A stretch of DNA of 50,156 bases, counting the filler, from Circinaria calcarea (lineage: Eukaryota): the NCBI GenBank assembly GCA_051942165.1. It is 2 parts of 2 records of this genome, joined end to end, with 100 filler letters (N's around TTAATTAATTAA, not from the genome) between each part and the next. Parts side by side here need not be neighbours in the genome. Positions count along the whole stretch, not along the records: positions 1 to 25,074 come from JAVECS010000098.1; 1 more part is not named here. The stretch is one strand, 5' to 3'. Below are positions 1,854-50,156 of this stretch, piece after piece (the first letter of the stretch is position 1; every line of letters starts with the position of its first letter). A program made the translations under genes and the position numbers. Below the pieces are notes generated by a model. The model searched no databases. It was given only the letters and a program-made list of their open reading frames with translations, and was not told where the DNA came from.

Positions 1854-1967
1854 AAGTAGCAGAAAGGGTGAGAGGTCTGTGCTGGGAAGATGAGCAGAGA
1901 AATGGCGGCCTCATCCTGCAACCCTTCTTCTCACAGCAAGATTCAACTGGTAAAATGAATATGCTAA

Positions 1968-2107
1968 TTTTAGGTATCTGGGGATTCTCGTAGACTAGCT
2001 ATCAAACGCTCAAGCCATCTTTGGCGGTCTGCCCCTATGCATCCTCAGCTCTTCGGCGCTAGTCCTAGGCCCGGGATTTCTTTGGTTCCTCGCACCGACG
2101 GTCTTAT
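1968..2107 (+). repeat. Direct repeat, copy 1 (140 bp) of the sequence at 17381-17521
   Basis: Manual alignment TTTTAGGTATCT...GACGGTCTTAT: 7 substitutions plus one 1-nt indel relative to copy 2. Confidence 0.97.
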
Positions 2108-2383
2108 TACTTTGGATCGACCAGGCTCTGACACCAGCCAGGATGCCAGGGAAGGCAGATGAGTTGAGATATTTCTAAATCGGGCTTAGTACATGTTGTG
2201 CACGTCGAGTTAACAGCCCGCGAAGCAGCATATTTCCTGGGTTTCGTCGCTGGTGATTTCAAAGACTATAAGCCCTGAATTACTGAAGAATCCTATCGAC
2301 TTTTAGCTGCCGCAAAGGTTGCCATGGCAGACTTAGGTGGCGAAGTGCTAAAACCAAGGGAACTACGGAAACAAGCAGAAGTA

Positions 2384-3335
2384 ATGAGTCCCTGAAGGAA
2401 GTCTCTCCATCACGGAGGCGCTCACAAACGCAACTAAATATCGAGACCAGCGACAAAGCTCCTAGCAAATCCCATCGGACGAGGAAATCATCACAGCACT
2501 CAAAGATCCATAACTCAGGTGTGCAAAATTGTTGGATTAGCTCGAGGATGAAAGTGATTGGACGTTCTCGGATAAACGATTGAAAAAGCTGATAAAGAAG
2601 CATGGGCTAAAAAGCAACGCTCAGGCCGAAATGCACTTGCAGCTCAGCAGCAGCACAGGGATAATAGCACCGTGGTGTTTCAAAATTTAATCTTATGGAC
2701 CCTACGACTATGGAGTCACTCCGATTCGAACATGGCAATCAAGATAAATGTACGTATGACTCCGTAATCCAGCATAAATCTCTTGCATATAGATGGCTGA
2801 CGTAAAAAACTATGCTATAACTTAGATCGCTCATGACAGACTATTCAAACCGGCCGTCCAAGCACCGAATCGAGGAAGCAATCTCGTGCTCAATCATTGG
2901 CTTATGCAGACATTATGGGACCACCATTGGGCAGCTGTGATTAAAGCTGGTGCAAATAAAGAGGATATGGGCCGCCAATTGCAAGCAGAGTAACTGAGAA
3001 TCCTCTTATTTTATTCAATCCTTGAAGCATGCAGCCTGACTTCCCGATACAGGTACGGCGTCAACCCCATCCCCTATCTTCCACCTCCTTCGACCGAAGC
3101 CGAAGTAGAGACAAGAGCAGCCGCTTTCAAGAAAGATGGTATGAAGATGAATCGTGAGATATCCTAAACGAGAGAGGGAAGGCAGTACGTTCCGGTCCAC
3201 GAAAATGGTGAAACCATCTAGCAACTAGAGAGACATGGTTAGTTCGTGATCAAGGTGACAAAGATCGACAAGGGGATCGGATTGCAAGAGTTTTGGGATG
3301 TTTCAAAATCTCGATGCCATCAGACGCTTGAGTGA
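2384..3335 (+). pseudogene. Decayed gene for a fungal hypothetical protein, with multiple nonsense and frameshift lesions (boundaries approximate)
   Basis: Protein-like translated segments interrupted by stops: PSDEEIITALKDP*LRCAKLLD*LEDESDWTFSDKRLKKLIKKHGL, CFKI*SYGPYDYGVTP, LWDHHWAAVIKAGANKEDMGRQLQAE/YGVNPIPYLPPP and ETI*QLERHG*FVIKVTKIDKG. Intron-like GTACGT...TAG and GTAACT...CAG segments lie between them. Confidence 0.6.
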
Positions 3336-4274
3336 GAGAGAGTGGTCAATAGTGATGACTGGCAGAAAAGATATCAGAGAGATGAGCGGACACGGTTCAG
3401 TCTCAGTTATGAGTACTTCACCAAAAGGGATCTAAGGCAGCGGTGGAAGACAATCCCCTTACTGCCTAAGCATTGTTCGGAGCATTTAACTTCCCTAGAG
3501 CGGATCGACGGAAGCCCGCAGGCCAACGCCTAGGGAGCATGTCATGGAAGATGCATCCGAAGCCCGGAAAAGAGCGGATGAATCTCATCAGCCATCATCT
3601 TTGAAGGCTCGTTACCTCACCTGGGATGTTCGAATAAGAAACAATATTTCTTGATAGAGGATATTGCATTGTACACTTGTTACGGTATCATCTTGGATAT
3701 TACCTTGGAGCCATCGGCTGATTCCGATAATGTCTTGCGACATTCTCTCTGGTACCCTTCTTAATGATAGCGTAGAGAATAAACCGCTCAAGCTATTCGC
3801 CCCAGAGAAGGTTGTTTCCATTCGATAAAGCCTCGCCAGCAAATGACAGTACACTATTAACGGTAATGCCTTCTTGATAACCTGTTACAATGAGTTTAGT
3901 CACTTGAACCTGATGGAAGAATGAAAGAACAAGTATGTCCTTAAATGGCTACCTTACTTGACTTGAACTACTTCTTACGATTACCTACTTGTGATTCCCA
4001 TCTGCAATGTTGTCGACTATCCGCAGTAGTCTTTATTTGTTGATAGTATGTCTTGACTGATGTGTATCCCTTGCAGTAATTGTGCTAAAGACCCTAGGCC
4101 GCTTGCCTATTTCATCCTGTTTTCAAACGGCGCAGAGAACTTATGCTTTTAGAAAGTAATTCGTTAAAGGATTTATACTTGTATTGAAGTTAACAGGACT
4201 GAATTCTCTAAGGCGTGGTGTGGAAAGTTAGGCTGCATAAAGACATAGAAGCTGACCGCGATCTTACAGGCCAG

Positions 4275-5415
4275 CTATGCTGCAGGCTTCTGGCCGATTG
4301 TGATGACCCGCTGCAGATTGAATGCAGTGTTCTGGCGATTCTTGCCCACTTCCTCGATCAATCCCCGGGCCACATCCCCTTGCCCGCCCCCTAACCGATC
4401 CAAAACATTGACACTGATTTCTTGGCTTGCCATCATCCAAGTATCTAGCAGCAATGTCACAATTTCTTGGGAAAACTTATGGCGATCCACCACAACATTC
4501 TCGAACCCGTTCTCTTTGAATGTCTCCGGAAGGCGGGTAATCCAGCTAGATGAGAGAGCGTGATTAGCGTAAATATGGATTACGTGGGAGAAAAGAAAGA
4601 GGGCATTTCAAATCAAAGAAAGACCAACCCGCTACTGATGAAGCTTGGGCCTGGCTTCGTTTTGCCTAGTGTAGAGGTGTACTCTCGAAGCTCATTCAAC
4701 TCCTCGTTGGCATGGGAGCTGGCGGAAGGAACTCTGATAATCTCCCATGTATTCACGTCCCATTCTCCCCAGGATATATAGCCTCCTGGCTCTGCCAGTT
4801 ATTGTTAATCAAGTAATTCCCATCAGGATCTTTTTGTTCCATGCATGATCCATTGATTGTAAACTCACTCAGCATTTTCATCAAGTTGCGCAGCATAGGC
4901 ACTGGATTTCCATCTCTTAAGATTGTGATGAACAGCTGCACATGAATGATATCATACTTCTCGAGCAGCTCAGAGGGGGGTTCTGAGAGGACATCGTGCG
5001 TGACCCAAGAGATGTTCGACGGAAGCCATTCCTTCGGCGGGCACTGCCCGAAGTTGATGTCCAAGCCGTCAAGTTGAGCGGAAGGGGGCAGGTTACGAGC
5101 AAGCTCGATAAGCCAGATGCTGCAATAGCGAGAATGGTTGTCAGTCGCTACTTTGGTATTCCAAGTTGAAGGAATGCAAGAAGGATCACCCGGTTCCAAC
5201 CCCTATCTCTGCGATTTTCAGATCTTCCTTTTCTGTAGGAATACTTGGATGAAGGAGGTAATTGAGGCCATCTTTCCATAAATAGTGTTGCAGAGTTGAC
5301 CTGTGGGATAACTCATAAGCTTGAGCAGAGCAGAGTATGTAGATCAAAAAGGCACCAACCTGGTATTGGCGGCAAATCCGCGAGATAACATATAGCTATT
5401 TGGATTACTGTCCAT
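4275..5415 (-). CDS. Class I SAM-dependent methyltransferase, GliN/SirN-like (paralog 1), 5 exons
   Basis: ATG at 5415. Spliced product: MDSNPNSYMLSRGFAANTR|STLQHYLWKDGLNYLLHPSIP...KIAEIGVGTG|IWLIELA...LDGLDI...YDIIHV...ML|KPGGYISWGE...TIGQKPAA*. It has SAM-binding motif I and the LKPGG motif, with canonical GT-AG introns. Confidence 0.88.
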
Positions 5416-6223
5416 TTTATTATGACATCAGAAGGATACCTTAAGGGGAAAAGAGAAGGAGAAGAAAAGGAAAGCCCTCGGGGGGAGGTAAAAGGTACCA
5501 TGTCATCGGACATATTCTATTGGTTCGAGAAAACCCCCCTTGGCCGACGTTTACAACATGCTGAGACAGGAAGAAGAATACCGGAATTATATTATAATAC
5601 ACGCACCTTACACAACAAAACGCTCCATACCGAAGGGGGGTTGGAGAGGATGTACGTTATGATGGTCAGCCCCCAGATGCCGGGTCCCTCGCCAATCGAA
5701 GCAGACACCAAAAGTCCGAGCACCTCAATACAACATCAGCCAATAACGGTTTCATAAACCCCTGTTGTCCCACTCTGGCACCCATCCTCGGGCCGCGCGG
5801 ATTTTCAATGCTTAATTACGGCTCAGCTACACAGCGTGACATCGATCGAAGCCCTCCGAGCACCCTTATCAGCTATTAGCTCCACGCTAAAGCCACTAAA
5901 CATTATGATTAACTGACTCATCTAACTGGTGGAGAACGAGGCTTTAGCTATATAAGGCATTGATCTACTGTGTCGCGCTAACAGCCGATTCCCCTACGAC
6001 CACAGTAGACACGGCATCTCGGAAGTGGTACCATAACACTGCAAATACCGGAGAGCGAAAATACCCGAGTCACCCCCACCATTTCCCTGCATATTGTTTC
6101 AAATGATTTGTATACTAGTCAAGGATCATTGATAGCACTAATGGACTATTATATTTTTATTTAAGGCACATGTTGAGTTCTCAAAGCGGCACCTAACGAG
6201 GGTGAAAGGCACCCTAAATTGAT

Positions 6224-7079
6224 CTAGAATACTTCCCCCGCCGCCCTTCTTAGTACATCCGCCAGCCACTGCGGACGGCTGATCATAAGGCAATGTCCAG
6301 CGTCGCATTTCTCCACAACATCAAACGCACTTGGTTCCAGCTGCCTTGCTGTGTTGATAATCATCTCAACAACCTGGGGTGTAAATGTCGTCTTATCTCG
6401 CTCGCCAATGACGTACGTGGATGGGATATCGCGCCAGGCAGCGTACGTTGTCGTGCTGGAGTAGACTCCGATGCTCTGGTGTGTGAGCTTGGAGGCCCAC
6501 TCATCTCCTTCGTCGGAGGAGAGGTCGTTGTAGAATACTTTCTTCGCATCTTCGGGATCAACATTGACAACCCCTTTCTGGATAGATCGAATGAAAGTCT
6601 TAGTAAACCAGTGACTGGATAAAAGGAGAGAGAGGGAAGGGGATAGCTGATGGGTGATATCTAACCTCAAGGTCCACCTTCATCCAGTCTGGCATCTGGG
6701 CTCCACCGGCAGTCGGTTGGAAACCCTCGGGCATGGCGAATGCCATGATAAACACCAGTCTCACAACCCCACCTTTGAGGCCCTGTTCTTCGCGCTCCTT
6801 CTTGCCAAGCCCCTTTGGTGCCTCGGCTCCAGGCATGCCGGTATATGAATGTACAACAAGGACTACTTCTTTCTCCTCTGAAACAATGAGCTTAGTGAGA
6901 CAATTGCGGATACCATTCACATCTTCAGTGAAGTCCATATTGGCCGGTATAGCGCCAGCAGAGGGAAGTGGTAGGCCAACCGTGGGGTAGCCATGGGCAG
7001 AAAGAGAATCGATAACGCCAGCGTAAATGTCGGGTTTGTGCCAGGCTCCAGGAACGAGGACGATGGTCGGTTTAGCCAT
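6224..7079 (-). CDS. Alpha/beta hydrolase (Abhydrolase_6; methylesterase/SABP2-like), intron 6578-6665
   Basis: N-terminal VLVPGAWH, nucleophile elbow VHSYTG, IPSTYV..ERD and catalytic His in DAGHCLMISRP. The GT-AG intron joins ORFs 6600-7079 and 6224-6670 in frame. Confidence 0.88.
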
Positions 7080-7593
7080 GCTGAGAGATTTCAGTGGCCG
7101 ATAGGGATGTTAGCCTAAGTATAAATGCGAGAGTAAGGTTCTCAAAAAGGGGAAATTATGAATGACGAACAGACAAAGAGGAGAGCTGAGAGGAGAGCTG
7201 AGGCTTATAAATGGAAGAGCAATAGCGGGGCATACCTTTGTATGCAACCATAAGGTAAGGATTTATAGTGGCTTGGTGGCTAGCGATGTCTGTTCTCGGG
7301 AGTGTCAACCATTTAACTTACAGTTTGGCATATGGAGAAGGGAAAGATCCCGCTGCTTTTAGTCGTATATCAAAAGAGGACTTTATGTATACATTGTCTC
7401 AAAGCGGCATTAAAGCAGACATTTGGTCAATTGCAAATTAAGGTTTTTTTGGTGAAGTAATATCCTGGTGTAGACGCGAACCTTAGGCATGTAAGTCTAC
7501 TCGTGTAATAATTTCTATAGCATTTGTACAAGACAATAAGTGAGCTCTCTAGGGCTTAGGCTTTCAAAGTCGGATAAACTCCTATCCACTGCC

Positions 7594-8855
7594 TTACTTT
7601 TTATTTATCGAATTTGTGTCCTTGTCCGAAGCCGTATCGTATCCTAAACCGCTAGTATGACTTTGTGTGGCAATTACATCCGTGAGAGGGTACGGGTCAC
7701 CAGGGAGGCGACGGAATTTGTCGGATTTGGAGTCGCCAGATCGCTTATTTGATCGAGTCAACCAAAGTCTCTTCAACGACGAGTCACCACCCGATTTCCA
7801 ATTCTTGGACCAAGTGAAAATCATGCTGCCGGAGAACTTGGATATCACTGGCTGTAAGATTGGCAGACAGGCGTTTATGACACCAAGCGTTGGCTCGAGA
7901 GAGGTACAGATGTTATCAAGAACGACACTGTATGTGATGTCCTGAAAATTCAGCCTCTGGATTGCAATAACTCGAATGATCGATATAATACAGATACTAC
8001 CAATTGCGATTAGTACATAAACATCTAGGAAGTGGTGCATATAGACTCACATAGCGCCGAGACTGAAGATTGCTGTCAATGAGACCTTTTTCGAGGTTTT
8101 CATCTGAAGACTCCATACTACTGGAAGGGGGAGAGCGACAATAGCCACGTCGATGATCAGGTTAACGATGCCTGTCGACAAATAATATGCTGGCAAATCT
8201 CCACAATGGCCCGATACTGTAATCTTGTTCCAATTGTATTCGAAAGGACGGCATATCAATAAGGCAGTTAGAACAGTAGACAGCCAGTAGGCTATTGTCA
8301 CTGCCCCCAAGGCGTATGCTGCATAGATCATCCTGGGGTTGCGGAAGATCTTACTATAGAAATGTAGGACCGAGACTTTTACGAGTGTGTTGGCAGTTGG
8401 CCATAGCAGCGTTGCGGCCACGGTACTCTGAGGTTGTCAGCTTGTGCTCTTATGCTAGCACCATGTCTTTGCAGATATACTTTGGCGAAAACAGTAAGCT
8501 CCTCAGAACTCAGCGCAATGATGTGCTGTGCGTAGCCTCCCTTGATACTGGCTGTTACACCTGTTATTCCATGCTCATGGAGAACGCTAAGGGAGCGTAC
8601 ATATGACGGAATTGACGTTGAATCCCAACGTGAAAATCTTGGGATAAGCTTAGTACGAGCCCATGCATGAGGATCTGGAAGGCTAAATACCGATGCTACG
8701 AATATCGCATAGTCATTGAAACACAAAGGGGTTCTTTTGAGCCTTCTTGCCCATATTCTGAGAGCGACGAAGACCAACGGCAAAACCGAGAACAATACAG
8801 TGGCACCTAGCACAGCTCTTGCCCGACCTTGGTGAGGACCGGAGAGAGGTGCCAT
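7594..8855 (-). CDS. PTH11-like (fungal rhodopsin-domain) 7-TM integral membrane protein, multi-exon
   Basis: ATG at 8855 (MAPLSGPHQGRAR). Family motifs: FVALRIWARR..NDY, KVSVLHFYSKIF, ICRPFEYNWNK..GHC, NLIIDVAIVALPLPVVWSLQM..KK and LEPTLGVINACLP. No CFEM domain is seen. Confidence 0.85.
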
Positions 8856-9600
8856 GCTGGAGTGAATAAGTAAAAGTAAACGGGAGAGGTTTAATTGAAA
8901 TCTGTTGTAGCTGAACAAAAATGGATTGAGTGTAAAGGTGAAAATAAACTGCGTTACCAACATTGGCCATTCCCCGAAATTTGATGCCGGTGCTGACTTC
9001 CGCGCAGGATCATCACACCATCTTTATTAAACCAGTAACATAAAACGCCCTGAAAGGAGCCTGTACCATTAACCGAAGTCACTTTGCATGCATGCTATTC
9101 CACATACTGGCATAATCTCTTATGGTATGCCGCCTCGATGCAAAGATTGCCGAAGAGCATGCTGCTTTTGTAGAGTTACACGACGTAAAGCATCGGAGAT
9201 TCCCCATTAGAGAAGTGACCGGAAGTCCCCTGCATTAGCTCCCGCATGAATGGATGCCGGAAAAGCCCGTAGCCCGGTTAATCGGGGTTGCATTGCATCC
9301 GGAATCCTAACTAGAGAGCTCCACTGCAGTTAGCTCCGTTGCAACCAAAGACTTTACATGGGCTATCATTGCGCCTCCCCTCCGTTAGGGAAATGTGGAT
9401 CGGTTTACAAATCGCGCAAGCAGCTATGGCTTTGTCTATCAGCACGTGTTCAGTGTTATGTAATCATCTGGTAACGCCTTAGTACTTTGTGTGATTATTG
9501 AGACGAGGAGAAAAGAGCTTGAACTACTACATAGGAATTTCAGTACAGTCTCTTTTATTGCATCGATTGAAGCATCTCTTAGCTTTCATTTCAAGAAGTG

Positions 9601-10702
9601 ATGGTGCCAGTCTCAGCGCAAACAACGGAGAGCACTCCGGTGAAAGACAATTACATCTTATCCCGAGGGTTTGGTGCCAATACGAGGTTTGCGCTTTGTC
9701 GTTCTACTGTGGTCCGGAGTTGATGGCAAACTCTTAGGCAGAATCTCCAGCATTATCTCTGGAAAGATGGAATTGGCTATCTTCTGCATCCTAGCATCCC
9801 CATCGATGTAGAAGACCTACGAGTTGCTGAAATCGGTGTCGGCACTGGGTATACTGTCTTCATACTATCTCAAGCGGACGGAGGTTAATAACATTTATAG
9901 CATATGGCTTGTCGAACTTTCCCGCATCCTAAGACCTTCTGCGCGACTGGACGGATTCGATATCAGTCATGCGCAATGCCCTCCTATCGAATTTATCCCG
10001 TCAAATATCTCCCTGCATATCCACGACTGTCTCGCAGAGCCTCCCAACGATTTGCTCGAACAGTACGATATCATCCATATTCAATGCTTTAACTCTGTCG
10101 TTCCGGACAACGATCCTATCCCAGTTGTCCGCAACATGCTGAAAATGCTCAGTTAGTGTTGTCGCATATCCAAATGTGGTGCCTTTCTGGCTAACAATGA
10201 AATGCCAAACCCAGAACCAGGAGGATATATTTCATGGGGAGAATTCGATTTCCTTTCCTGGGAAACCATTACAACAGCCTCCGCTAGCGGCTATAACGAT
10301 GAGCTCAACACTCTTCTAGAATATAACGCGACTTTCGGCGGCACGCGGCCAAAGCCCAATTTCCTTGCTCACAAGTAAGTCTCAGTTCCCTTCGGGCCCT
10401 TAGGGATACATAGATACCCACAGATATGTAGCTGGACCGCGAAATTGCCTCAAACCTTTTCGGATTTCGGCATGACGAATATCATCGTAGACCGACATCC
10501 GTTTTCAAAGGAGATCGCCACATATTTGTTGGATACATTCATGGTAGCAGGCCAAGAAATCAGTGCGAATGTGCTGGATTCTACTGGGGGCGGGCGGGGG
10601 GATATTGCGAGAAGGCTCATTGAGGAGGTGGGCAGGAACAGAAGAAACATTGGACTCGGCCTGGATCGGCTGACGGTCATAGGGCAAAAGCCGATAGCGT
10701 AA
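9601..10702 (+). CDS. Class I SAM-dependent methyltransferase, GliN/SirN-like (paralog 2), 5 exons
   Basis: ATG at 9601. Spliced product: MVPVSAQTTESTPVKDNYILSRGFGANTR|QNLQHYLWKDGIGYLLHPSIP...RVAEIGVGTG|IWLVELS...LDGFDIS...ML|KPGGYISWGE...TVIGQKPIA*. It has the same four intron positions as paralog 1. Confidence 0.88.
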
Positions 10703-11065
10703 AGCTAAAAATTTACTTTATTAATATTATAAAATCATCTAATTTTTCATCGGCTTGAAGTACTCCAAATACAAACACTAATACCACAAAAGTTTTAGAA
10801 GTAATTAACCTTAAAGATTTATGTCTAATAAATATAGACGGCTCATTGCTGCCGAGCTTTAGGGCGTTTCTATTTTTGGGAAAATAACATAGAGGCTAGC
10901 AAATATCTCCGCATTCGTAAATACGTTTCTCTAGGCTTGGTCCCGAAAAGTGGAAATCGGGTGTAAGACCTGATGTATACGATATAGGCTTTGCGGATGT
11001 TAGTAAAAGCATTGCCTTCAGCGTCAAAATTCTTTTCTTCAGCTTTATCTAGACTTATTCGCCCC

Positions 11066-11296
11066 CAGCGCCGCCAGTAGTCCGGACTGTGGACTGACAG
11101 TCCAGCTTAACAGTCCGAAACATGTGTGGAAATTGCAGGCAAGTAGGGCGTTGACTGGGAAATATATATGTACGTAGTAGAAGTTGGCACGTGCGTATAT
11201 GTTTCCCAGTCAACGCCTTGTTTGCCTGCAATTTCCACACATGTTTCGGACTGTTAAGCTGGACTGTCTGGACTGTCTGGACTACTGGCGGCCCTG
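11066..11296. mobile_element. Foldback MITE (~231 bp) with ~100-bp inverted arms; hAT-like CAG...CTG ends
   Basis: Left end CAGCGCCGCCAGTAGTCC and right end GGACTACTGGCGGCCCTG. Arms 11066-~11168 and ~11196-11296 are near-perfect reverse complements. Flanks TTATTCGCCCC / TGAATCGCCCC may be a degenerate TSD. Confidence 0.85.
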
Positions 11297-11420
11297 TGAA
11301 TCGCCCCTTTAAGGACATGATCATCCTTAATTATCTTCAAATCTCGAACGAGGTTTTTTACTTTGCGTTGCTAAAGGGATAGGTTACAAACGGTTAATGG
11401 ATTCTCATTGTTACGGGCTT

Positions 11421-13444
11421 CTAAGTTGATTCGTTTTCCAAAGGAGTGAAGATAAGTTCCAGTTTCCCAGGTGCTGCCGTGAACTGATCTTTCATATCCT
11501 TCCAAACCCTGATCCCATCTTCCCCAGGCGCGAAAGTTATGTCATACTTACTCACTAATAGCGCAGTCACGAACCGCACCTCTGCGAGCGCCAAGTTCTT
11601 CCCTACGCAAGCAAAGCGGCCAATGCTAAAGGGCGTGAAAGCTTTCCTATCCGCCACCATCTCAGGTTTAGAATACCATCGCTCGGGGATGAACTCTGCG
11701 GCCTTTTCGAAAGACTTCTCGACTGCAGGGGAAGTTAGACCTTTCCTTCTTCTATCTCAAAGTGGATTAAAGCGAATAGAGAAATGGAAGGACGTACGGC
11801 GACCCATTGTATAGCGCGGAGATACGATAGTGGTGTTTCCGGGGATGAAGTGGCCCGCGATCTCAACACCTTGTGGAGGACTCTCGCGATAGCCGCCGGT
11901 TGGGACCGAGGGGTGTAAGCGAAGTGTTTCATTTATCGCGCCATTCAAGTGGTCAAGAGTCTTCAAAGCCTTTGTGTCGTAGATAGAAGGGATGGTATCC
12001 AATTCAGTGCGGATTTTTTTAGCATGCTGAGGCTCTAAAGCTAGACGGTAGAAGAGGTAAATCATAGTTGACGCAACCGTGTCGCTGTTGGTCATCAGTC
12101 AATATAATGAGATTCGTGACTCTATTGGCCAGAACTTGCCTGCCAGCAACGATTAAAGCTACTGAATCACCATTTAGCCAGAACTGATCTTCCTTTAAAC
12201 TGTTCTTCTTTTTGGAGCCGTCGATCAGCCATGAAGAAATCTGCGCATCAATATCAGCTTGAAAGTCAAGCCTATATACTAGCGAAGATAGCATACGTCA
12301 GGTTTGTCCACTTCAGTCTGAATAAAAAGCGTGTGTTAGCTTACATTATGCTGACGTGAACAGAGGAAGAAGCCTATTGCTTACATGGATTCGCTCACCC
12401 ATACGTTCGGCACACCACGAAATCATCTTATTCCAGTCTCGTACAACTGGGATCACTGGGAAGCTGAAGGCTAGCTGAACTAGCCAGGGTACAGAGCTTA
12501 AAGGACCTAGTAGATTGAGTGCCCTTCGCAGCATTAGAACAGCATAGTGCCATTCTTTACTCTCCAGCATTTTGAAAGACTTTGCAAATGCAAAGTCTCC
12601 CATAACATCAAAGCTAAGAAAGTAAAACCAAGTTGAGACGTCTACTGGTTTCCCAGAGGTACTTGCGATATGCTTTTCAAGTAGCAACCCATATGTCTGG
12701 ATACGCTTTTCATAACCCTCCAGAGCTGTCAAACAAGGTATTAAGAATAAACTAGTTTCTCTGAATGAAGGAGGCTAACCTTTTACAGTAAAAGCGCGGT
12801 CCCAAATCCGGCGACGGTGGTCATGCTCCTTCTTATCTCGAGTCGTATTAAGAGCAATGAGTGGCAGAAGAATATCGTACCAAACCGCTTTATTGCAATG
12901 GTTGGCAGGACCGTCAACTGCCCATTTGACTTCCGGTGTAAAGATAGTTATTTCAGTTGGACCTTCAATATTTCATTGTAAGCTAGGAAACAGATATTTT
13001 ATAGAATAGCTCTCTCCTCTTACCAGTTCGCACAAAATCCCCGTATTTCTCGTGCAAGCCGTCTAGTAAGATATGATTCTGAGAGTCCAATGTATTTGCG
13101 GTATGCCAAAGTTTGGTGACGCCCGCCATAAATGGACCTGGGAACTTGCGCAACCGATGAAAACCTTTCCGGTAGATGACAATGCTTGTTAAGAGCGAGA
13201 GAGCGTAGGCAGCGAAAACTGAGAGTGTTTCCATAACACCACGGAATGCGCTTTGATTCTTGACTGCAATCTCCCCATACAGCAAGATAAAACATAGGAT
13301 TAAATACAACCAGAAAAGTATTGGAGCCTTCATATGATATTCACCGTAGATGTAAAAACAAAGATGCGAGGCAATGCCAAATACTGCTGCCACAAATACT
13401 TCCTCCAACAACGTCCAGTTGGTCGGAAAAGTTGACAATAACAT
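11421..13444 (-). CDS. Cytochrome P450 monooxygenase, multi-exon, with a short TEVDKPD exon and one GC-AG intron (12085-12139)
   Basis: ATG at 13444, then N-terminal TM segments, FPGP hinge, I-helix AG|SDT, K-helix ETLR, FIPERW and heme motif FSIGRFACVGKNLA. Spliced exons appear in frame. Confidence 0.93.
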
Positions 13445-14196
13445 AATGAAATATTTGTTTGCGTTACAATAAAGCTTGTTAGTAATAGAGAAGTTGATTA
13501 AGTGTGAAAACTTGTGGGGAGAAGATGTTGACAGTAGACAGAATAGGAGGAGAGTCTGGGCGAGGTGGTTCTTACTGAAAAGTACATTCGTGATTCTGCT
13601 TACCTTGCACCACACCACATTAAATTACCGATCAGTCTTAAATAGCCAACAGGTAAGAGATGTAGATCCCCTGACGCAATCCCGTTAACCAGACAAGTCA
13701 ATTGTGCCAAGATACGGAAAATACCGAACATATTCTGTTGAACTCTCCACAAGAGCGGGAGGATTCAAGTGCGAGGCACACCTTGGGTAGAAGGGAAAAG
13801 TCCGAGTGGTGGACGGTCTCACGGCACAGTCTGTCGGCTTGGGATTGAGTTCTAGTAGGATTGGACTGTTACCTTGGACGCGCACTCTCCACAATGGGTG
13901 GTTCAATTATGAATGTTTCAGTGGCCATGCACTTCCTTGCAGCTGGCTTTCCTACCACATTGCCCGAGGTGTGCATACTACGGTAGGCAACCCTGGCGTT
14001 TTAAGCTAAAATATAGATAGCCAGGCGCAGGTATGCAAGATCTCCTTAGACCCCTCTGTACTATTGCGGCGACTGCAGCTGGAGGGTAGGGAATATTTGA
14101 GCCAAAAGCGCTCACGCCTAAGCTCACACATGGGTAGAATAATCTCTGCACCTCATCACCATGCTAGTAGATTACATGCTCAGCTCCATCCTCCAA

Positions 14197-15069
14197 CGAG
14201 CCGTCTCCGGACAGTACGCTTTCGCCAAAGTTTGTACTGTCCGAACCTTCGGTGCATGGGTGGAGCGGGGACTAAAAGCGAGTTAGTGGAGATGGCTGGG
14301 ATACAACCATGCTTAGGGTTGTATTGTAGCTTAGCTTCCATACAAACTTACCGCACACAATCAATCTTCCCACTTTTCTTCCATTTTTCTCTCCCAAGTC
14401 CCCCACACACATAGAATTGTACATTCTTGTAATACAATACGAGCCAATTGCTAATTAGTATAATAATTTAACATACTATGGAGCCTACCAATTTTTCCAC
14501 CTCTTTGCCAGCGGAGCTCATCCATTCAGTGACCCCTGAGCTTGCTGGCGCAATCAGGAAAGCCACAGAGAGGCTATACCCGAAGCGCATCGACGTCGGC
14601 CTGTCCAGGACGACGTGGTGGAGTCACTAAAGGTCGGTTTTATTCGCCTGCAGGATTTCGCAACGGAAACGAACTGTGGAGGCAGCGGCGGCGAAGGAAG
14701 CGGCGAAGGAAGCAGCGAAGGGAGCGAAGGAAGCGGCGAAGGTGAAGAAGGAAGCCAAGACGCAGGCAAAGGAAAGGAAGATTCGTAAATCGAAGCTAAT
14801 ACGGACCAGCCAGATATTCGATTCATTCGTGGATCCTAGTCAGAGGTACGAATTAGTAATTAGAAGCTCATAGTAAATACATACATATATTACATATATT
14901 ATTGCGCATTATAATGCATTCCAATGCGCAACATCTATTCGAATTACTATATGGCTTATGAATATATTACTAGTACTAATCTACTGAATTAGTGCCCGCT
15001 CCACCCTTGCACAAAAATAGCGGACAGTACGAAACTTTGGCGAAAGCGTACTTGTCCGGAGACGGCTCG
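14197..15069. mobile_element. Non-autonomous Mutator-like (MULE) DNA transposon, 873 bp
   Basis: Long (~80 bp) imperfect TIRs: CGAGCCGTCTCCGGACAGTACGCTTTCGCCAAAGTTT... and ...AAACTTTGGCGAAAGCGTACTTGTCCGGAGACGGCTCG. Perfect 9-bp TSD ATCCTCCAA at 14188-14196 and 15070-15078. No intact transposase inside. Confidence 0.88.
14688..14742 (+). repeat. Imperfect 12-bp tandem repeat (GCGGCGAAGGAA) inside the MULE
   Basis: Directly visible; would encode AAKEAAKEAAKGAKEAAK. Confidence 0.8.
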
Positions 15070-15229
15070 ATCCTCCAAACATGGCGGTCTTACTCAAGTA
15101 GGAAACATGGGTTTTCCGTGGAAGCCTCTACTTACGCACCACATATCTGCCGATAGCGCTGAGATTCTCTCAGCCGTAACCTAATTTCTTTGCCGTTAGA
15201 CTACCGAAACGGGGTCCGGCAAATAAGCC

Positions 15230-15489
15230 TAGCGTCGCCAGTAGTCCCAACGGTCTAGTCGGGCTCTAAGATTGTGGCTGCCTTGGCAGTCCAGAATCTG
15301 GAGCCGAGGGTATATTCCTAAATCGTAGAAGAACATACAATAGGGGTAGGTTATCAGCCTGGACTGATAGCTTAGTCCAGTTCACTACCCCTAGACTGGA
15401 ATGTTGATCCGCCCTGTGAACTATTAATCCCACTAAGAGTGTGACTGCAGTCCACCAGTCCAGTTCAGTCCAGGCTACTGGCGGCGCTG
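15230..15489. mobile_element. Second MITE of the same TIR family as 11066-11296 (~260 bp)
   Basis: Ends TAGCGTCGCCAGTAGTCC and GGCTACTGGCGGCGCTG. Many internal AGTCC/GGACT motifs, as in the first copy. Flanking 8-mers AATAAGCC / ACTATGCC (6/8 match) are consistent with an eroded 8-bp hAT-type TSD. Confidence 0.75.
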
Positions 15490-16037
15490 ACTATGCCGCA
15501 CAGATTGCGGCGATCATACATTACATCGGAGTGATAATTTGTATGTGCCGGCATAAATTACTAGGGTTCGACACACTCACTTACTAAGAGCCTAAGTCAT
15601 GCCACCCACTTATATGCTTCAGAGACTAAAATACATTACAGTTGGACTAAGTACAAGACATTATAAAACATAGTAAGGAACGCTCAACTATTCTGCGTTA
15701 CTGATCAATGCTACGTATGCGGCATCTGCTTGTTTCAGCTCTATGACGAAGTCCAAAGTCTAAGCAACTATCCTCCTCTACTTGTTGATTGGCTGATACT
15801 GTGAAAGATAGAAGTACCCTGCCAGCTCAGGGTTCCAAAAGGCTCACCAAGCTGAATTCAATAATCCGTGCCTCTGCCACTCGAGATAATGCGTTGCATT
15901 TCCGGCTCCTTCTATGCATTCCATTTTCAGCTCCTTCTGTGCGTTCCTGCAAAGCTTTATCTTGTCAACTCAATCAACCTTCCCGCCCTATCAGTCGAGT
16001 ACTTAACCCCTCAAGGAATCTTATCAAAGTACTAAAC

Positions 16038-17084
16038 ATGAGGAACCAATGTGTGGAAAAGAAAACCCTCACGGAACCACATCAGGTAAGAGACCTGTAT
16101 ATATATTTTATAACCTTACAAGGTCTGAAAATGTCCTGGTGCTAACTAGTACTAACTTGTTTGAAGGCAATGAAACATTTTCAAAAAAGGAAATCACTGT
16201 TCTATCACGTATACACAATATGGCTTTTTACCCGCAGTGACCTGAAAACGATCGTCATTCCAAGTACGGTTTTTGGCGTGGTCTGTACTTTGTCGGGACC
16301 AGTACTAACGACCAATCCGTCGCCTTCGATACTCGACACTGGAAAGCGTCTACCAATAACCGTGTATTGGGTTTGGGTCAATCTATTACCGTTCGCGATA
16401 GATAATCAGCGGCAGCCAGAAGGCATTAAGGAAGACATCGAAAACAAGGCCTGGAGACCACTACCATCGAAGAGGTTAACAGCAAGACAAGCGACTTTGC
16501 TGATGCTGGCGTTATATCCTGTAGCATTTTTATCCAGTCTATATTTCGGAGGGATATGGCAGTGCATCATTCTAATGGGCCTAGGATATTGGTACAATGA
16601 TCTGAAGGGAGCCGATAGCAGTTGTATAACCCGGAACTTCATCAATGCCTGCGGTTACATTTGCTTTATTTCTGGATCCTTTGAAATCGCGTTCAATTGT
16701 TCAGTTGCTTTCCTGGAGCCGGTGGCCTACAAATGGGTCCTCACAATTGGCCTGGTAGTCCTTACCACGATACAATCGCAAGACATGTACGATCAAGCTG
16801 GTGATAGCCTCCGCAAGCGTTGGACTGTCCCGTTGGTAGTTGGGGACTCGGCAGCGAGGTGGACTATTGCAGTCCCTATAGGAATCTGGTCCTGGGTTTG
16901 TCCAGCATTCTGGCAGATTGGCGTGGAAGGTTTTGCGACATCCACCGTCTTAGGGATCATCATCATTTGGAGAATCTTCTTGAAGAGAACGGCCGAAGCG
17001 GACAAGACTTCGTTTCGAATTTATAATATGTGGATGGTTAGCCTGTACTTGTTACCATTGCTAAAAAGGTTAAGCGAGTTTTAG
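16038..17084 (+). CDS. UbiA-type membrane terpene cyclase (Fma-TC/Af520-like), intron 16086-16166
   Basis: Exon 1 (ATG 16038-16085) splices GTAAGA...AAG in frame to ORF 16161-17084. Multi-TM protein with TIWLFTRSDLKTI, NQRQPEGIKEDIENKAWRPLPS, WYND..G and QDMYDQAGDSLRKRWTVPLVVGD, the motif set of the fungal UbiA-type terpene cyclase subfamily. Confidence 0.85.
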
Positions 17085-17380
17085 CAACGCCGTTGGAGAT
17101 TGACGACATGAGCTTCAGACGATTAGACTCATCACCTACCCTGGTTTCTTCCACCATAGTCCAAAAGTTGAGAACTCTATAAAGTGGGCAAATACGTCAA
17201 ATCGTCTCTTTCAAAGTCTCGAGCAGCCAGGCTAATGACCAATGTAACTCACGGTTTCTTCCATATTGACATTGCGAGAAAAGGCGAGAAGGTACTAACC
17301 CAGGTTTTGATGCCGGACCTGATGACCTATCCCGTAAGCTCTTTTCTTGCAACGAGAAACTGATGAAAAGAATAGGCAAG

Positions 17381-17521
17381 TTTTAGGTATCTAGGGATTC
17401 TCGTACACTAGCTATCAAACGCTCAAGCCACCTTTCGTGGTCTGCCCCTATGCATCCTCAGCTCTTCGGCGCTAGTTCTAGGCCCGGGATTTTTTTTGGT
17501 TCCTCGCACCGACGGTCTTAT
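17381..17521 (+). repeat. Direct repeat, copy 2 (141 bp); begins 27 nt downstream of the EB1 stop codon (likely EB1 3' UTR)
   Basis: ~94% identical to 1968-2107 in the same orientation. Confidence 0.97.
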
Positions 17522-17547
17522 CACCACTAGTCAGGGGTATTTGCTAC

Positions 17548-48974: not shown

Positions 48975-50156
48975 TATAAAACTGAAAATAAAATAGAATA
49001 TTATTTTTTTAAAAATAATATAATATTTTATAATTATATAGGCTTGCGGGTTAGGTTTTAATATTATAATATTCGATAAATATAAAAATTTCTTTATTCG
49101 TCCGCATTTTAAAACGGCCGAATTATAATTTTTTTTAACCGAATTTTAAAATTCCGACGATAATAAAATATATTTAATTAAATAATAAATTTATATTTTT
49201 AATATTATAAATATATTAATAATTGAATATAGTACGGTGAGTGCTACTGCACGACTTATTGGTGGAATTATTATTATATTGAAGATTATTTAATTAGCTA
49301 CGTTGGGGGTGCGATATATATACTCGCCCATTACTACGTTATTCCTTATTGGGTGTTGCCTATAGCAACTCGCTAGTAAGGAGGAATGCACCGTATTTTA
49401 ACTAAATAAATTATTCTATTTTCTTTAAAATAATATATTTATAAATCGTATTTAATAAATTTTATATTATTAAATCTAAAGCAATAATTTAATTATATTT
49501 TATATAACCGTATTATTATTAATCGAGATTTAATATATTCCTTATTAAGCCTCAAGAATTGCAGCGCCCTTATAATAATAATATTTTATTTTTTATTCTA
49601 AATAATTAAATTATACTTTTCAAAAACGGATATAGTTTTCTATATTATAATAAACGCCGGCTTAAAAAATTTAGGCTTTTAATAATTTAAAAGAATTATT
49701 TCTCCCTGCCTTCGTATTATATATATTTTTTAAAATCCTTTAATATAAATAATAGATTCGTTAATTTATATAATTTTATATTATTTTTCTAAACCCTAAT
49801 TAGCACGTGTAAACGCCTATTATTAATATCGATCTATAATTTTAGCGTTAAAATATGGTTTTTTCCGGGCTATAAAATAAAAAAATCCAGATATAAATAA
49901 AGTCCGGGTAATTATTCTATTACTATAATTAAGGCTTAATATATATTTTAATTATTTATATATTATCCGGCGTGCCCGAGCGGAAGCTTCGATAAAATTA
50001 ATAAAATATTATTTAACCGGAGTATTAATTAGGCGTCCGGTATTATATTTTTTTTTTCGGTATAACCGGCTATTATAAAATAATATTAATTATAAATTAA
50101 TTAAAGCCTATTTATTTTATAATTTATTATTATATCCATCTAATATTATATAATAT
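48975..50156 (-). mobile_element. AT-rich, RIP-degraded repeat region containing a Tc1/mariner (Tc1-type DDE) transposase relic at ~49400-50156+
   Basis: Abrupt shift to very AT-rich, TpA-rich sequence. The minus strand reads in one frame ...IARKKPYF...AN*GLEK*YKII*INES, with RRQGE, KPKF and IIM/I*KTIS further on. These match Tc1-type ARKKP, WxxVxWxDES, RRxGE and MVWGAIS once G>A and C>T changes are reversed. Confidence 0.8.

Follow-up and report, generated by a model that had tools for sequence, protein, structure and literature searches.

We analysed a 50,156-nucleotide stretch of Circinaria calcarea DNA (assembly GCA_051942165.1), referred to here as the window, in which parts of two records are joined by filler letters; positions 1-25074 are contig C98 (JAVECS010000098.1) of the source assembly (G000 in our numbering; 31.5 Mb, 5512 contigs). 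An original prediction had described six intact genes in about 13 kb of this contig as a biosynthetic cluster built on a UbiA-type terpene cyclase (UTC), and all six lie at the positions claimed. From left to right they encode MT_A, an S-adenosylmethionine (SAM)-dependent methyltransferase (4275..5415, minus strand, five exons, 283 amino acids (aa); assigned by open reading frame (ORF) and intron reading and by an ortholog at the metagenome locus L032); an alpha/beta hydrolase of the SABP2/MES/PNAE/BioH3-like group (6224..7079, minus strand, two exons, 255 aa; Pfam, motifs, a family profile and the fold of the homolog P0165); a PTH11-like (Fung_rhodopsin) membrane protein lacking a CFEM domain (7594..8855, minus strand, five exons, 350 aa; Pfam, introns and orthologs); MT_B, a second SAM-dependent methyltransferase (9601..10702, plus strand, five exons, 292 aa; ORF and intron reading and paralogy to MT_A); a cytochrome P450 with AGSDT, ExxR, PERW and heme-Cys motifs (11421..13444, minus strand, seven exons, 551 aa; Pfam, introns and orthologs adjoining UTC orthologs); and the UTC itself, with a long motif I and a QDxxDxxGD motif II (16038..17084, plus strand, 321 aa; Pfam, motifs, fold and tree). 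As predicted, the P450 and UTC genes are transcribed divergently; the 2.6-kb spacer between them contains insertions of two repeat elements.

We assigned the exon borders by eye, and the spliced lengths follow from those coordinates. At these borders 19 of the 20 introns in the six genes are GT-AG and one is GC-AG, and the exon sums are divisible by three in every gene; a strict branch-like motif is absent from six of the 20 introns. Full-length homologs found with tblastn tile the P450, both methyltransferases and the cyclase, and Pfam returns UbiA (3e-15), p450, Abhydrolase_6 and Fung_rhodopsin. The six genes look intact and their frames are continuous, in agreement with what had been predicted. 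The closest protein records that carry names come from lichen-forming and other filamentous ascomycetes. An ORF scan between the flanking repeats described below showed no transcription factor or transporter, as the prediction had also held, and the stretch 2111-4274 contains no recognisable cluster gene. Fold and profile searches were run on the main UTC exon, on separate exons or on the close homologs P0165, P0121 and P0131.

The cyclase gene has an intron at 16086-16166, and an in-frame ATG at 16170 offers an alternative start. Its product matches PF01040 at 56.6 bits, against a Pfam cut-off of 34.2, and its model is an all-helical UbiA fold (predicted local distance difference test score 89.6) whose best Foldseek matches are digeranylgeranylglyceryl phosphate synthase and AfUbiA (7bpu, 6m31, 4tq4); a sequence search of the PDB gave no real match. 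Both of the motifs that had been predicted are present. Motif I reads N96-Q...ED106-x-ENK-x-WRP, with nine residues between N96 and D106, and motif II, Q221-D-M-Y-D-Q-A-G-D229, conforms to the published definition QDXXDXXXD (Q221-D222...D225...D229); the same source gives motif I of the Fma-TC/Tps1A/EriG type as NXXX(G/A)XXXD, with seven residues from N to D (PMC9835599). The long motif I is carried by 119 of the 120 UTC homologs listed, from 487 in all, and the short form by none; the canonical prenyltransferase motif NDxxDxxxD is absent from all 120, as it is from the window UTC.

The genome contains 24 PF01040 matches, and the 18 longer ORFs that we compared divide into a canonical-type clade of seven and a group of 11 that includes the window UTC. 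The seven were assigned to the canonical type from their motifs and Pfam scores, five of them having NDxxDxxxD, and in a FastTree phylogeny of 23 rows, none of them a named Coq2 or Cox10, the window UTC stands apart from them with support of 99. The clade of the 11 ORFs (support 99) includes P0114, whose source label, ‘Fumagillin beta-trans-bergamotene synthase’, is an automatic name. BLASTP of the seven canonical-type ORFs against the window UTC gave no significant match (best E 0.85). The UbiA protein does not group with the canonical-type prenyltransferases, and the separation in the tree, the lack of a significant BLASTP match and the absence of NDxxDxxxD set it apart from the aromatic class. 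Codon-position identity of the UTC to its counterpart at L030 is 0.76/0.86/0.46, and the cyclase is under purifying selection.

The motifs also indicate where among characterised UTCs the protein may belong. In Pb_BisA, as printed, motif I runs from N95 to D105, the spacing of the window UTC (PMC11745945); Pb_BisA is a beta-bisabolene synthase grouped with the BibS alpha-bisabolol synthases (PMC11393291). In this spacing the window UTC matches the bisabolene/bisabolol subgroup of the Pb_BisA type, and not Fma-TC. The original prediction had named Fma-TC as precedent: it is indeed a cyclase of the same UbiA-type class, but the nearer precedent is the subgroup with the long motif I, comprising Pb_BisA and BibS.

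The P450 gene contains the GC-AG intron, at 12139-12085. Its GC donor is shared with the ortholog at L030, and L031, L032, L033 and L035 have GT there. P0125, whose source label is a lichen-forming fungus, is 99% identical to one P450 exon piece, so that the window too probably comes from a fungus that forms lichens; this public model is 427 aa long compared with the 551 aa read here. Public models of the window P450 are probably mis-spliced, since P0125 has a late start and leaves out the sequence surrounding the GC-AG intron. The named relatives of the P450 carry automatic labels only (benzoate 4-monooxygenase, tryprostatin B 6-hydroxylase), and the literature on the SthD P450 held nothing usable.

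The methyltransferase exon pieces by themselves have no Pfam match. P0121, 90% identical to MT_B exon 3, matches Methyltransf_25/12/23, and both MT_A and MT_B are predicted to be class I SAM enzymes. They are paralogs, 59-75% identical per exon and with identical intron phases, and MT_A is the closest relative of MT_B within the genome. Searches of the PDB (best E 0.0014) and of the ESM Atlas, which returned generic names, gave no clue to the substrate.

The hydrolase has a small alpha/beta hydrolase fold with a putative Ser78-Asp199-His233 triad. A profile built from 26 relatives and the fold of P0165, which is 74% identical to the hydrolase over exon 1, both lead to PNAE, SABP2, MES16 and BioH3; the profile E values against SABP2/MES, PNAE and BioH3 range from 1e-13 to 6e-18 and the template-modelling (TM) scores from 0.70 to 0.75. 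Fold and Ser-Asp-His triad are shared with these enzymes and the identity is only about 20%. A single-exon search of the PDB was uninformative (FtsY noise), the signal for this group coming with the profile. The protein appears to belong with the SABP2/PNAE/BioH-like methyl-ester hydrolases. For the PTH11-like protein, which matches Fung_rhodopsin at 7e-29, as for the methyltransferases and the hydrolase, homologs, Pfam and P0121 bear out the predicted assignments.

To what extent these genes belong together can be judged from other fungi. One scan of metagenome contigs gave 64 loci, 60 of which have a cyclase match of at least 200 aa; these form 20 groups at 90% identity under single linkage. 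Most of the loci belong to a single accession series, possibly from related organisms; five groups are contigs shorter than 6 kb with little flank, and the L092 group may merge different loci. Beside the UTC, a P450 relative occurs in 15 of the 20 groups and a PTH11-like gene in 12. All five gene classes are present in five groups (L030, L031, L032, L033 and L035), which are also the only ones with the methyltransferase and the hydrolase. A quick tree unites the window UTC with those of L030, L031 and L032 in one clade, at a Shimodaira-Hasegawa-like approximate likelihood ratio test (SH-aLRT) support of 93, so that the complete set is found in all three metagenome groups of the window's own clade; L033 and L035 fall elsewhere.

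Gene order is shuffled among the complete loci and membership is kept: the methyltransferase adjoins the UTC in L030 and in L031 separates it from the P450, and the flanking genes differ at every complete locus. L032 has all six genes, with a four-gene block inverted, and carries an MT_A ortholog (71-76% over exons 3 and 5) together with an MT_B ortholog cut by the contig end. Because both orthologs are found there, the methyltransferase duplication is taken to be old, with both copies kept. The window genes resemble their counterparts in L030-L032 much more closely than they do the neighbours of other cyclases; the PTH11-like orthologs, for instance, are 58-71% identical in L030-L032 compared with at most 52% beside other UTCs. 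More generally, neighbour identity tracks cyclase identity (rho 0.60-0.75 for the P450, 0.49 for the PTH11-like gene and 0.90 for the methyltransferase). In cultured fungi, all four Pleosporales pairs of closest cyclase and P450 that were checked (Lophiostoma, Amniculicola, Lojkania and Periconia) bear consecutive accessions. A Pfam scan of 46 of 132 longer ORF pieces, namely those outside known genes at the five complete loci, found no regulator or transporter, only a urease, COQ5 and DUF7730, and no isoprenyl diphosphate synthase, polyketide synthase (PKS) or nonribosomal peptide synthetase (NRPS) was seen in the block or among the scanned ORFs of the five loci. The co-conservation that the original prediction required is thus seen both in the orthologous set of five groups and in the Pleosporales pairs, and this comparison of sequences points to a six-gene set that is co-inherited as orthologs and to a real biosynthetic cassette.

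Within its own genome the window UTC has many relatives: 20 matches on 17 contigs, nine of the others near full length and several with stops. The class I terpene synthase family PF19086 has one match, a lower bound that covers this family alone among class I families. Around the other UTC matches, in the stretch fetched for each, a P450 relative occurs on 5 of 16 contigs and a PTH11-like gene on 6 of 16, compared with none of 20 size-matched controls (tblastn; p 0.012 and 0.004); by Pfam the PTH11-like count is 6 of 16 versus 1 of 20 controls (p 0.02). Of the seven P450 paralogs most similar to that of the window, four are on UTC contigs. The Fung_rhodopsin family is large, with at least 165 matches in the genome, 150 of them listed. 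Of 15 other contigs with members of the methyltransferase family, 11 (C1256, C709, C101, C979, C144, C1541, C148, C664, C874, C1565 and C2918) have a Fung_rhodopsin gene no more than 9 kb away, and one of 20 control contigs has such a gene; the hydrolase family shares a contig with a Fung_rhodopsin gene in 5 of 14 cases. Canonical-type UbiA genes also stand beside PTH11-like genes, on C709, C979, C987 and C931 (L122, L127, L124 and L126), three of these with methyltransferase matches, and such loci are a parallel type of cassette with an aromatic prenyltransferase at its core. Contig C874 (L014) is cassette-like, with a weak hydrolase match, a methyltransferase, a UTC and a PTH11-like gene, and no P450 was seen on its 9.9 kb. 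This genome-wide link cuts both ways: it presents the receptor as a regular partner of prenyl chemistry, and it equally allows methyltransferase, hydrolase and receptor to be a module of their own. Neither the link nor the many UTC paralogs had been mentioned in the original prediction, which was likewise silent on the bracketing repeat and the transposon insertions described next.

The block is bracketed by a 166-bp direct repeat of which only two copies were found in the genome. The left copy (1945..2110, plus strand) is 91% identical over 167 columns to the right copy (17358..17524, plus strand), which ends 24 bp from the stop codon (17550-17548) of a convergent EB1 gene. Similarity extends weakly from the left copy back to about 1857 (some 90 bp), just behind the stop of the neighbouring plus-strand gene at 1853; the score of this extension, 42, narrowly exceeds the maximum of 41 among 1000 shuffles, and there is no downstream extension. 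Since the repeat copies abut both gene stops, about 15.4 kb would have been inserted between two convergent genes with duplication of the spacer, and the arrangement fits such an insertion. Repeat-induced point mutation as the cause of the divergence between the copies is unsupported, the 14 changes being mixed. L031/L038 is bracketed by a different direct repeat (77%, about 130 bp), unrelated to that of the window; in L031 it lies at 846-971 and 11116-11268 and is dispersed sequence, found also in L041, L044 and L035. A bracketing repeat thus occurs in two of the five complete cassettes with both flanks (L030, L033 and L035 have none) and in none of 29 control stretches. A single terminal repeat common to all cassettes can be rejected, as the window repeat matches no other locus.

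Three further elements lie inside the block. A MITE-like (miniature inverted-repeat transposable element) fold-back element, multi-copy in the genome, occupies 11064..11296 (self-comparison and genome search). In the P450-UTC promoter spacer, a non-autonomous element at 14197..15069 ends in inverted repeats some 80 bp long and is flanked by a target-site duplication of 9 bp without mismatch (14188-14196 and 15070-15078); its ends recur on about 20 other contigs, and from the 9-bp length of the duplication we presume it to be Mutator-like. A degenerate element at 15228..15489 has ends that resemble the 11064-11296 element in repeat comparison. On C2245 (L113), positions 498-1212 and 3630-4421 are partial copies of the 5' half of the PTH11-like gene (93%) and of window 2910-3701 (87%); the gene copy is degenerate, with 27 of its 49 changes C>T or G>A and no strict CpA preference.

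Outside the repeats, a multi-membrane gene at 188-1853, cut by the contig start, has a weak DUF6536 match (E 0.012, below cut-off) and no relative in any locus compared. Beyond the right repeat, 17548-48390 holds housekeeping-type genes, among them EB1, a WD40 protein as well as a short-chain dehydrogenase/reductase (SDR) by Pfam; further ORFs there presumably encode an RNA recognition motif protein, a PIF1-like helicase, EDC3, STE50 and a cyclophilin. In 49001-50156 the GC content falls to 22% in the last kilobase, like an AT-rich repeat relic.

UTC clusters are an established class, with 326 counted in 581 genomes and 13 expressed (HEx, PMC5895447). A close precedent is Pb_bis of Penicillium brasilianum (Pb_BisA/B/C/D), which has the same trio of UTC, P450 and G protein-coupled receptor (GPCR)-like protein, at 319, 547 and 353 aa compared with 321, 551 and 350 aa in the window; its UTC agrees with that of the window in the spacing of the long motif I and almost entirely in motif II (PMC11393291, PMC11745945). 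BisA alone was tested there and makes beta-bisabolene, and carboxylic acids are the compounds that have been assigned to Pb_bis. Pb_bis differs, as printed, in having a decarboxylase-like gene and neither methyltransferase nor hydrolase, the likeness being one of gene types, motifs and lengths; no unassigned gene that might be an AacuI-like decarboxylase (BisD) was seen in the window block, no search with BisD itself having been made. The tps1 cluster of Antrodia cinnamomea shares UTC, P450 and SAM methyltransferase with the window, and Tps1A, Tps1H and Tps1D convert farnesyl diphosphate (FPP) to (S,Z)-alpha-bisabolene, 14-bisabolenoic acid and its methyl ester (PMC9835599); unlike the window it comes from a basidiomycete, has the short motif I and comprises ten genes, of which three suffice. 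Fma-TC, of the fumagillin (fma) cluster of Aspergillus fumigatus, acts on FPP via a bisabolyl cation and has a multi-step P450 partner (PMC12434612, PMC5895447, PMC9835599). Its pairing of UbiA-type cyclase and P450 recurs in the window, whose motif I is two residues longer and which has no PKS or acyltransferase; Pb_BisA itself is only 24-29% identical to Fma-TC (PMC11393291). BibS, of the ‘distinct motif I’ subgroup (Luo et al. 2022, as cited), and HEx TC1/TC3 (PMC5895447) are, by their descriptions, ascomycete UTCs beside P450s that lead to oxidised sesquiterpenoids, and those descriptions give no receptor or esterase role. The sydonol cluster (PMC12434612) was rejected as a relative: Syd1 has class I-type motifs, and the cluster two P450s and an SDR.

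Seen against these precedents the architecture stands out less, as the tps1 and Pb_bis types are in print and 326 UTC clusters have been counted, and the combination of UTC, P450, methyltransferases, hydrolase and PTH11-like protein is a variant on known UTC cluster types. That the six-gene combination was not recognised in the original prediction is right insofar as we found no paper on the five-class set, or on UTC expansion in lichen fungi, in the open-access literature, which leaves subscription papers and several supplements (tps1 B-L, the HEx TC1-TC13 tables) outside; but UTC with P450 and methyltransferase, and UTC with P450 and GPCR-like protein, are both in print. PTH11-like genes form the largest GPCR-like family of fungi, expanded in lichen fungi. 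Their functions are described as largely unknown (PMC5526305). Their occurrence inside clusters is reported (4.2%), mostly near PKS and NRPS-like genes, and the metabolites have been suggested as their ligands (PMC12842992). Expansions of PTH11-like genes and terpene clusters are described in Peltigera, in a main text that does not mention UbiA.

We think it reasonably probable that the cassette makes an oxidised and methylated sesquiterpenoid, in which a bisabolane-type skeleton is converted to an acid and a methyl ester, a second methylation is added, the hydrolase reverses the ester and the receptor senses the product or controls the pathway. We infer every chemical step. Judging from its family and motifs, the membrane-bound UTC would ionise host FPP at two Mg-binding motifs and cyclise it via the bisabolyl cation; the likeliest outcome is a hydrocarbon or alcohol of the bisabolane type. 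Conserved adjacency and precedent suggest that the P450 would then oxidise the skeleton repeatedly, probably taking a methyl group to a carboxylic acid. One methyltransferase might form the methyl ester, and the other, an old retained duplicate, might methylate another position or a congener. The SABP2/MES-like hydrolase, going by its family, would cleave the methyl ester, so that acid and ester would interconvert. The PTH11-like protein, a fixed member of the cassette, takes the place in which one would look for a transcription factor or transporter; its most plausible role is to sense the product or to control the pathway.

Several observations weigh against this pathway. Kinship with characterised UTCs is judged from motifs in print and from a single automatic label (P0114, 48%), no close relative of the methyltransferases in the PDB, the ESM Atlas or protein records is solved or named, and hydroxynitrile lyases and methylketone synthase score like esterases in the hydrolase searches (about 20% identity), so that esterase activity is a family-level guess. 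The UTC tree is a quick one and places L033 and L035 in a different clade, and L040, a member of the complete groups, has the hydrolase and no detected methyltransferase. Only one of the contigs that pair methyltransferase and PTH11-like genes carries a UTC; as the pairing occurs mostly without a UTC, the methyltransferase may serve a receptor module and not the terpene. Finally, the promoter spacer shared by P450 and UTC has received two insertions.

The frequent pairing favours a different account, which we regard as unlikely though worth keeping in view: a UTC-P450 pathway beside an independent module of PTH11-like protein, methyltransferase and hydrolase. The product would be oxidised and not methylated by these enzymes, and the module would handle another, perhaps external, small molecule or act in regulation. 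Besides the proximity of methyltransferase and hydrolase families to Fung_rhodopsin genes (11 of 15 and 5 of 14 contigs, versus 1 of 20 controls), the canonical-type UbiA genes on C709, C979, C987 and C931 have PTH11-like neighbours too, some with methyltransferases; in the metagenome groups the P450 is beside the UTC in 15 of 20 but the methyltransferase in 5 of 20; and tps1 needed only three of ten clustered genes (PMC9835599). Yet at the complete loci the five classes stay together as orthologs through rearrangements, interleaved and with different flanks each time. We give distinctly less credence to a product other than a cyclic sesquiterpene, whether linear and of the farnesol or nerolidol type, a diterpene as for EriG, or the result of prenyl transfer, with the tailoring enzymes acting on that. 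The window UTC has been aligned with no close characterised homolog, UbiA-type synthases include diterpene formers such as EriG (PMC9835599; red-algal UTS preprint), and a fold search cannot tell a cyclase from a transferase. Set against this, the motifs agree with those of Pb_BisA, the protein lacks the motif of canonical prenyltransferases, and neither the block nor the scanned ORFs of the five loci showed an isoprenyl diphosphate synthase, PKS or NRPS. A cassette that is silent or decaying here, as a mobile accessory block with lost regulation, seems to us the least likely of these readings. It would account for the promoter-spacer insertions, the element beside the 3' end of the P450 gene, the degenerate partial copy on C2245 and the UTC paralogs with stops; against it, all six frames are open, third codon positions have diverged more than first and second ones, and both old methyltransferase duplicates are kept.

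An extension of the sesquiterpenoid pathway is more speculative, and we hold it to be doubtful as it stands. The cassette might be a self-contained signalling unit, in which UTC and P450 would make an acid, methyltransferase and esterase would switch between a mobile methyl ester and that acid, and the PTH11-like protein would be the receptor. Switching between ester and acid has analogies in methyl salicylate in plants and juvenile hormone in insects. The many PTH11-like genes that this genome has linked to UTCs and prenyltransferases would then be diversified ligand-receptor pairs that move as direct-repeat-bracketed blocks.

Taken alone, the terpene cluster adds one more uncharacterised case to a class of which hundreds have been predicted, and the PTH11-like and hydrolase genes are its more interesting part than the cyclase. 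The five-class set is conserved across distant fungi, with the UTC-P450 core in cultured Pleosporales, and as its members are orthologs that are kept together, three to five genes are enough to rebuild the pathway in yeast. With UTC-like matches on 17 contigs compared with one for PF19086, the sesquiterpene chemistry of this genome may lie mostly in UTC genes, which is to say in genes annotated as generic prenyltransferases. A receptor gene that is co-inherited with a short pathway would, in turn, name a candidate ligand for the PTH11-like family, a case of the general idea already put forward for these receptors (PMC12842992).

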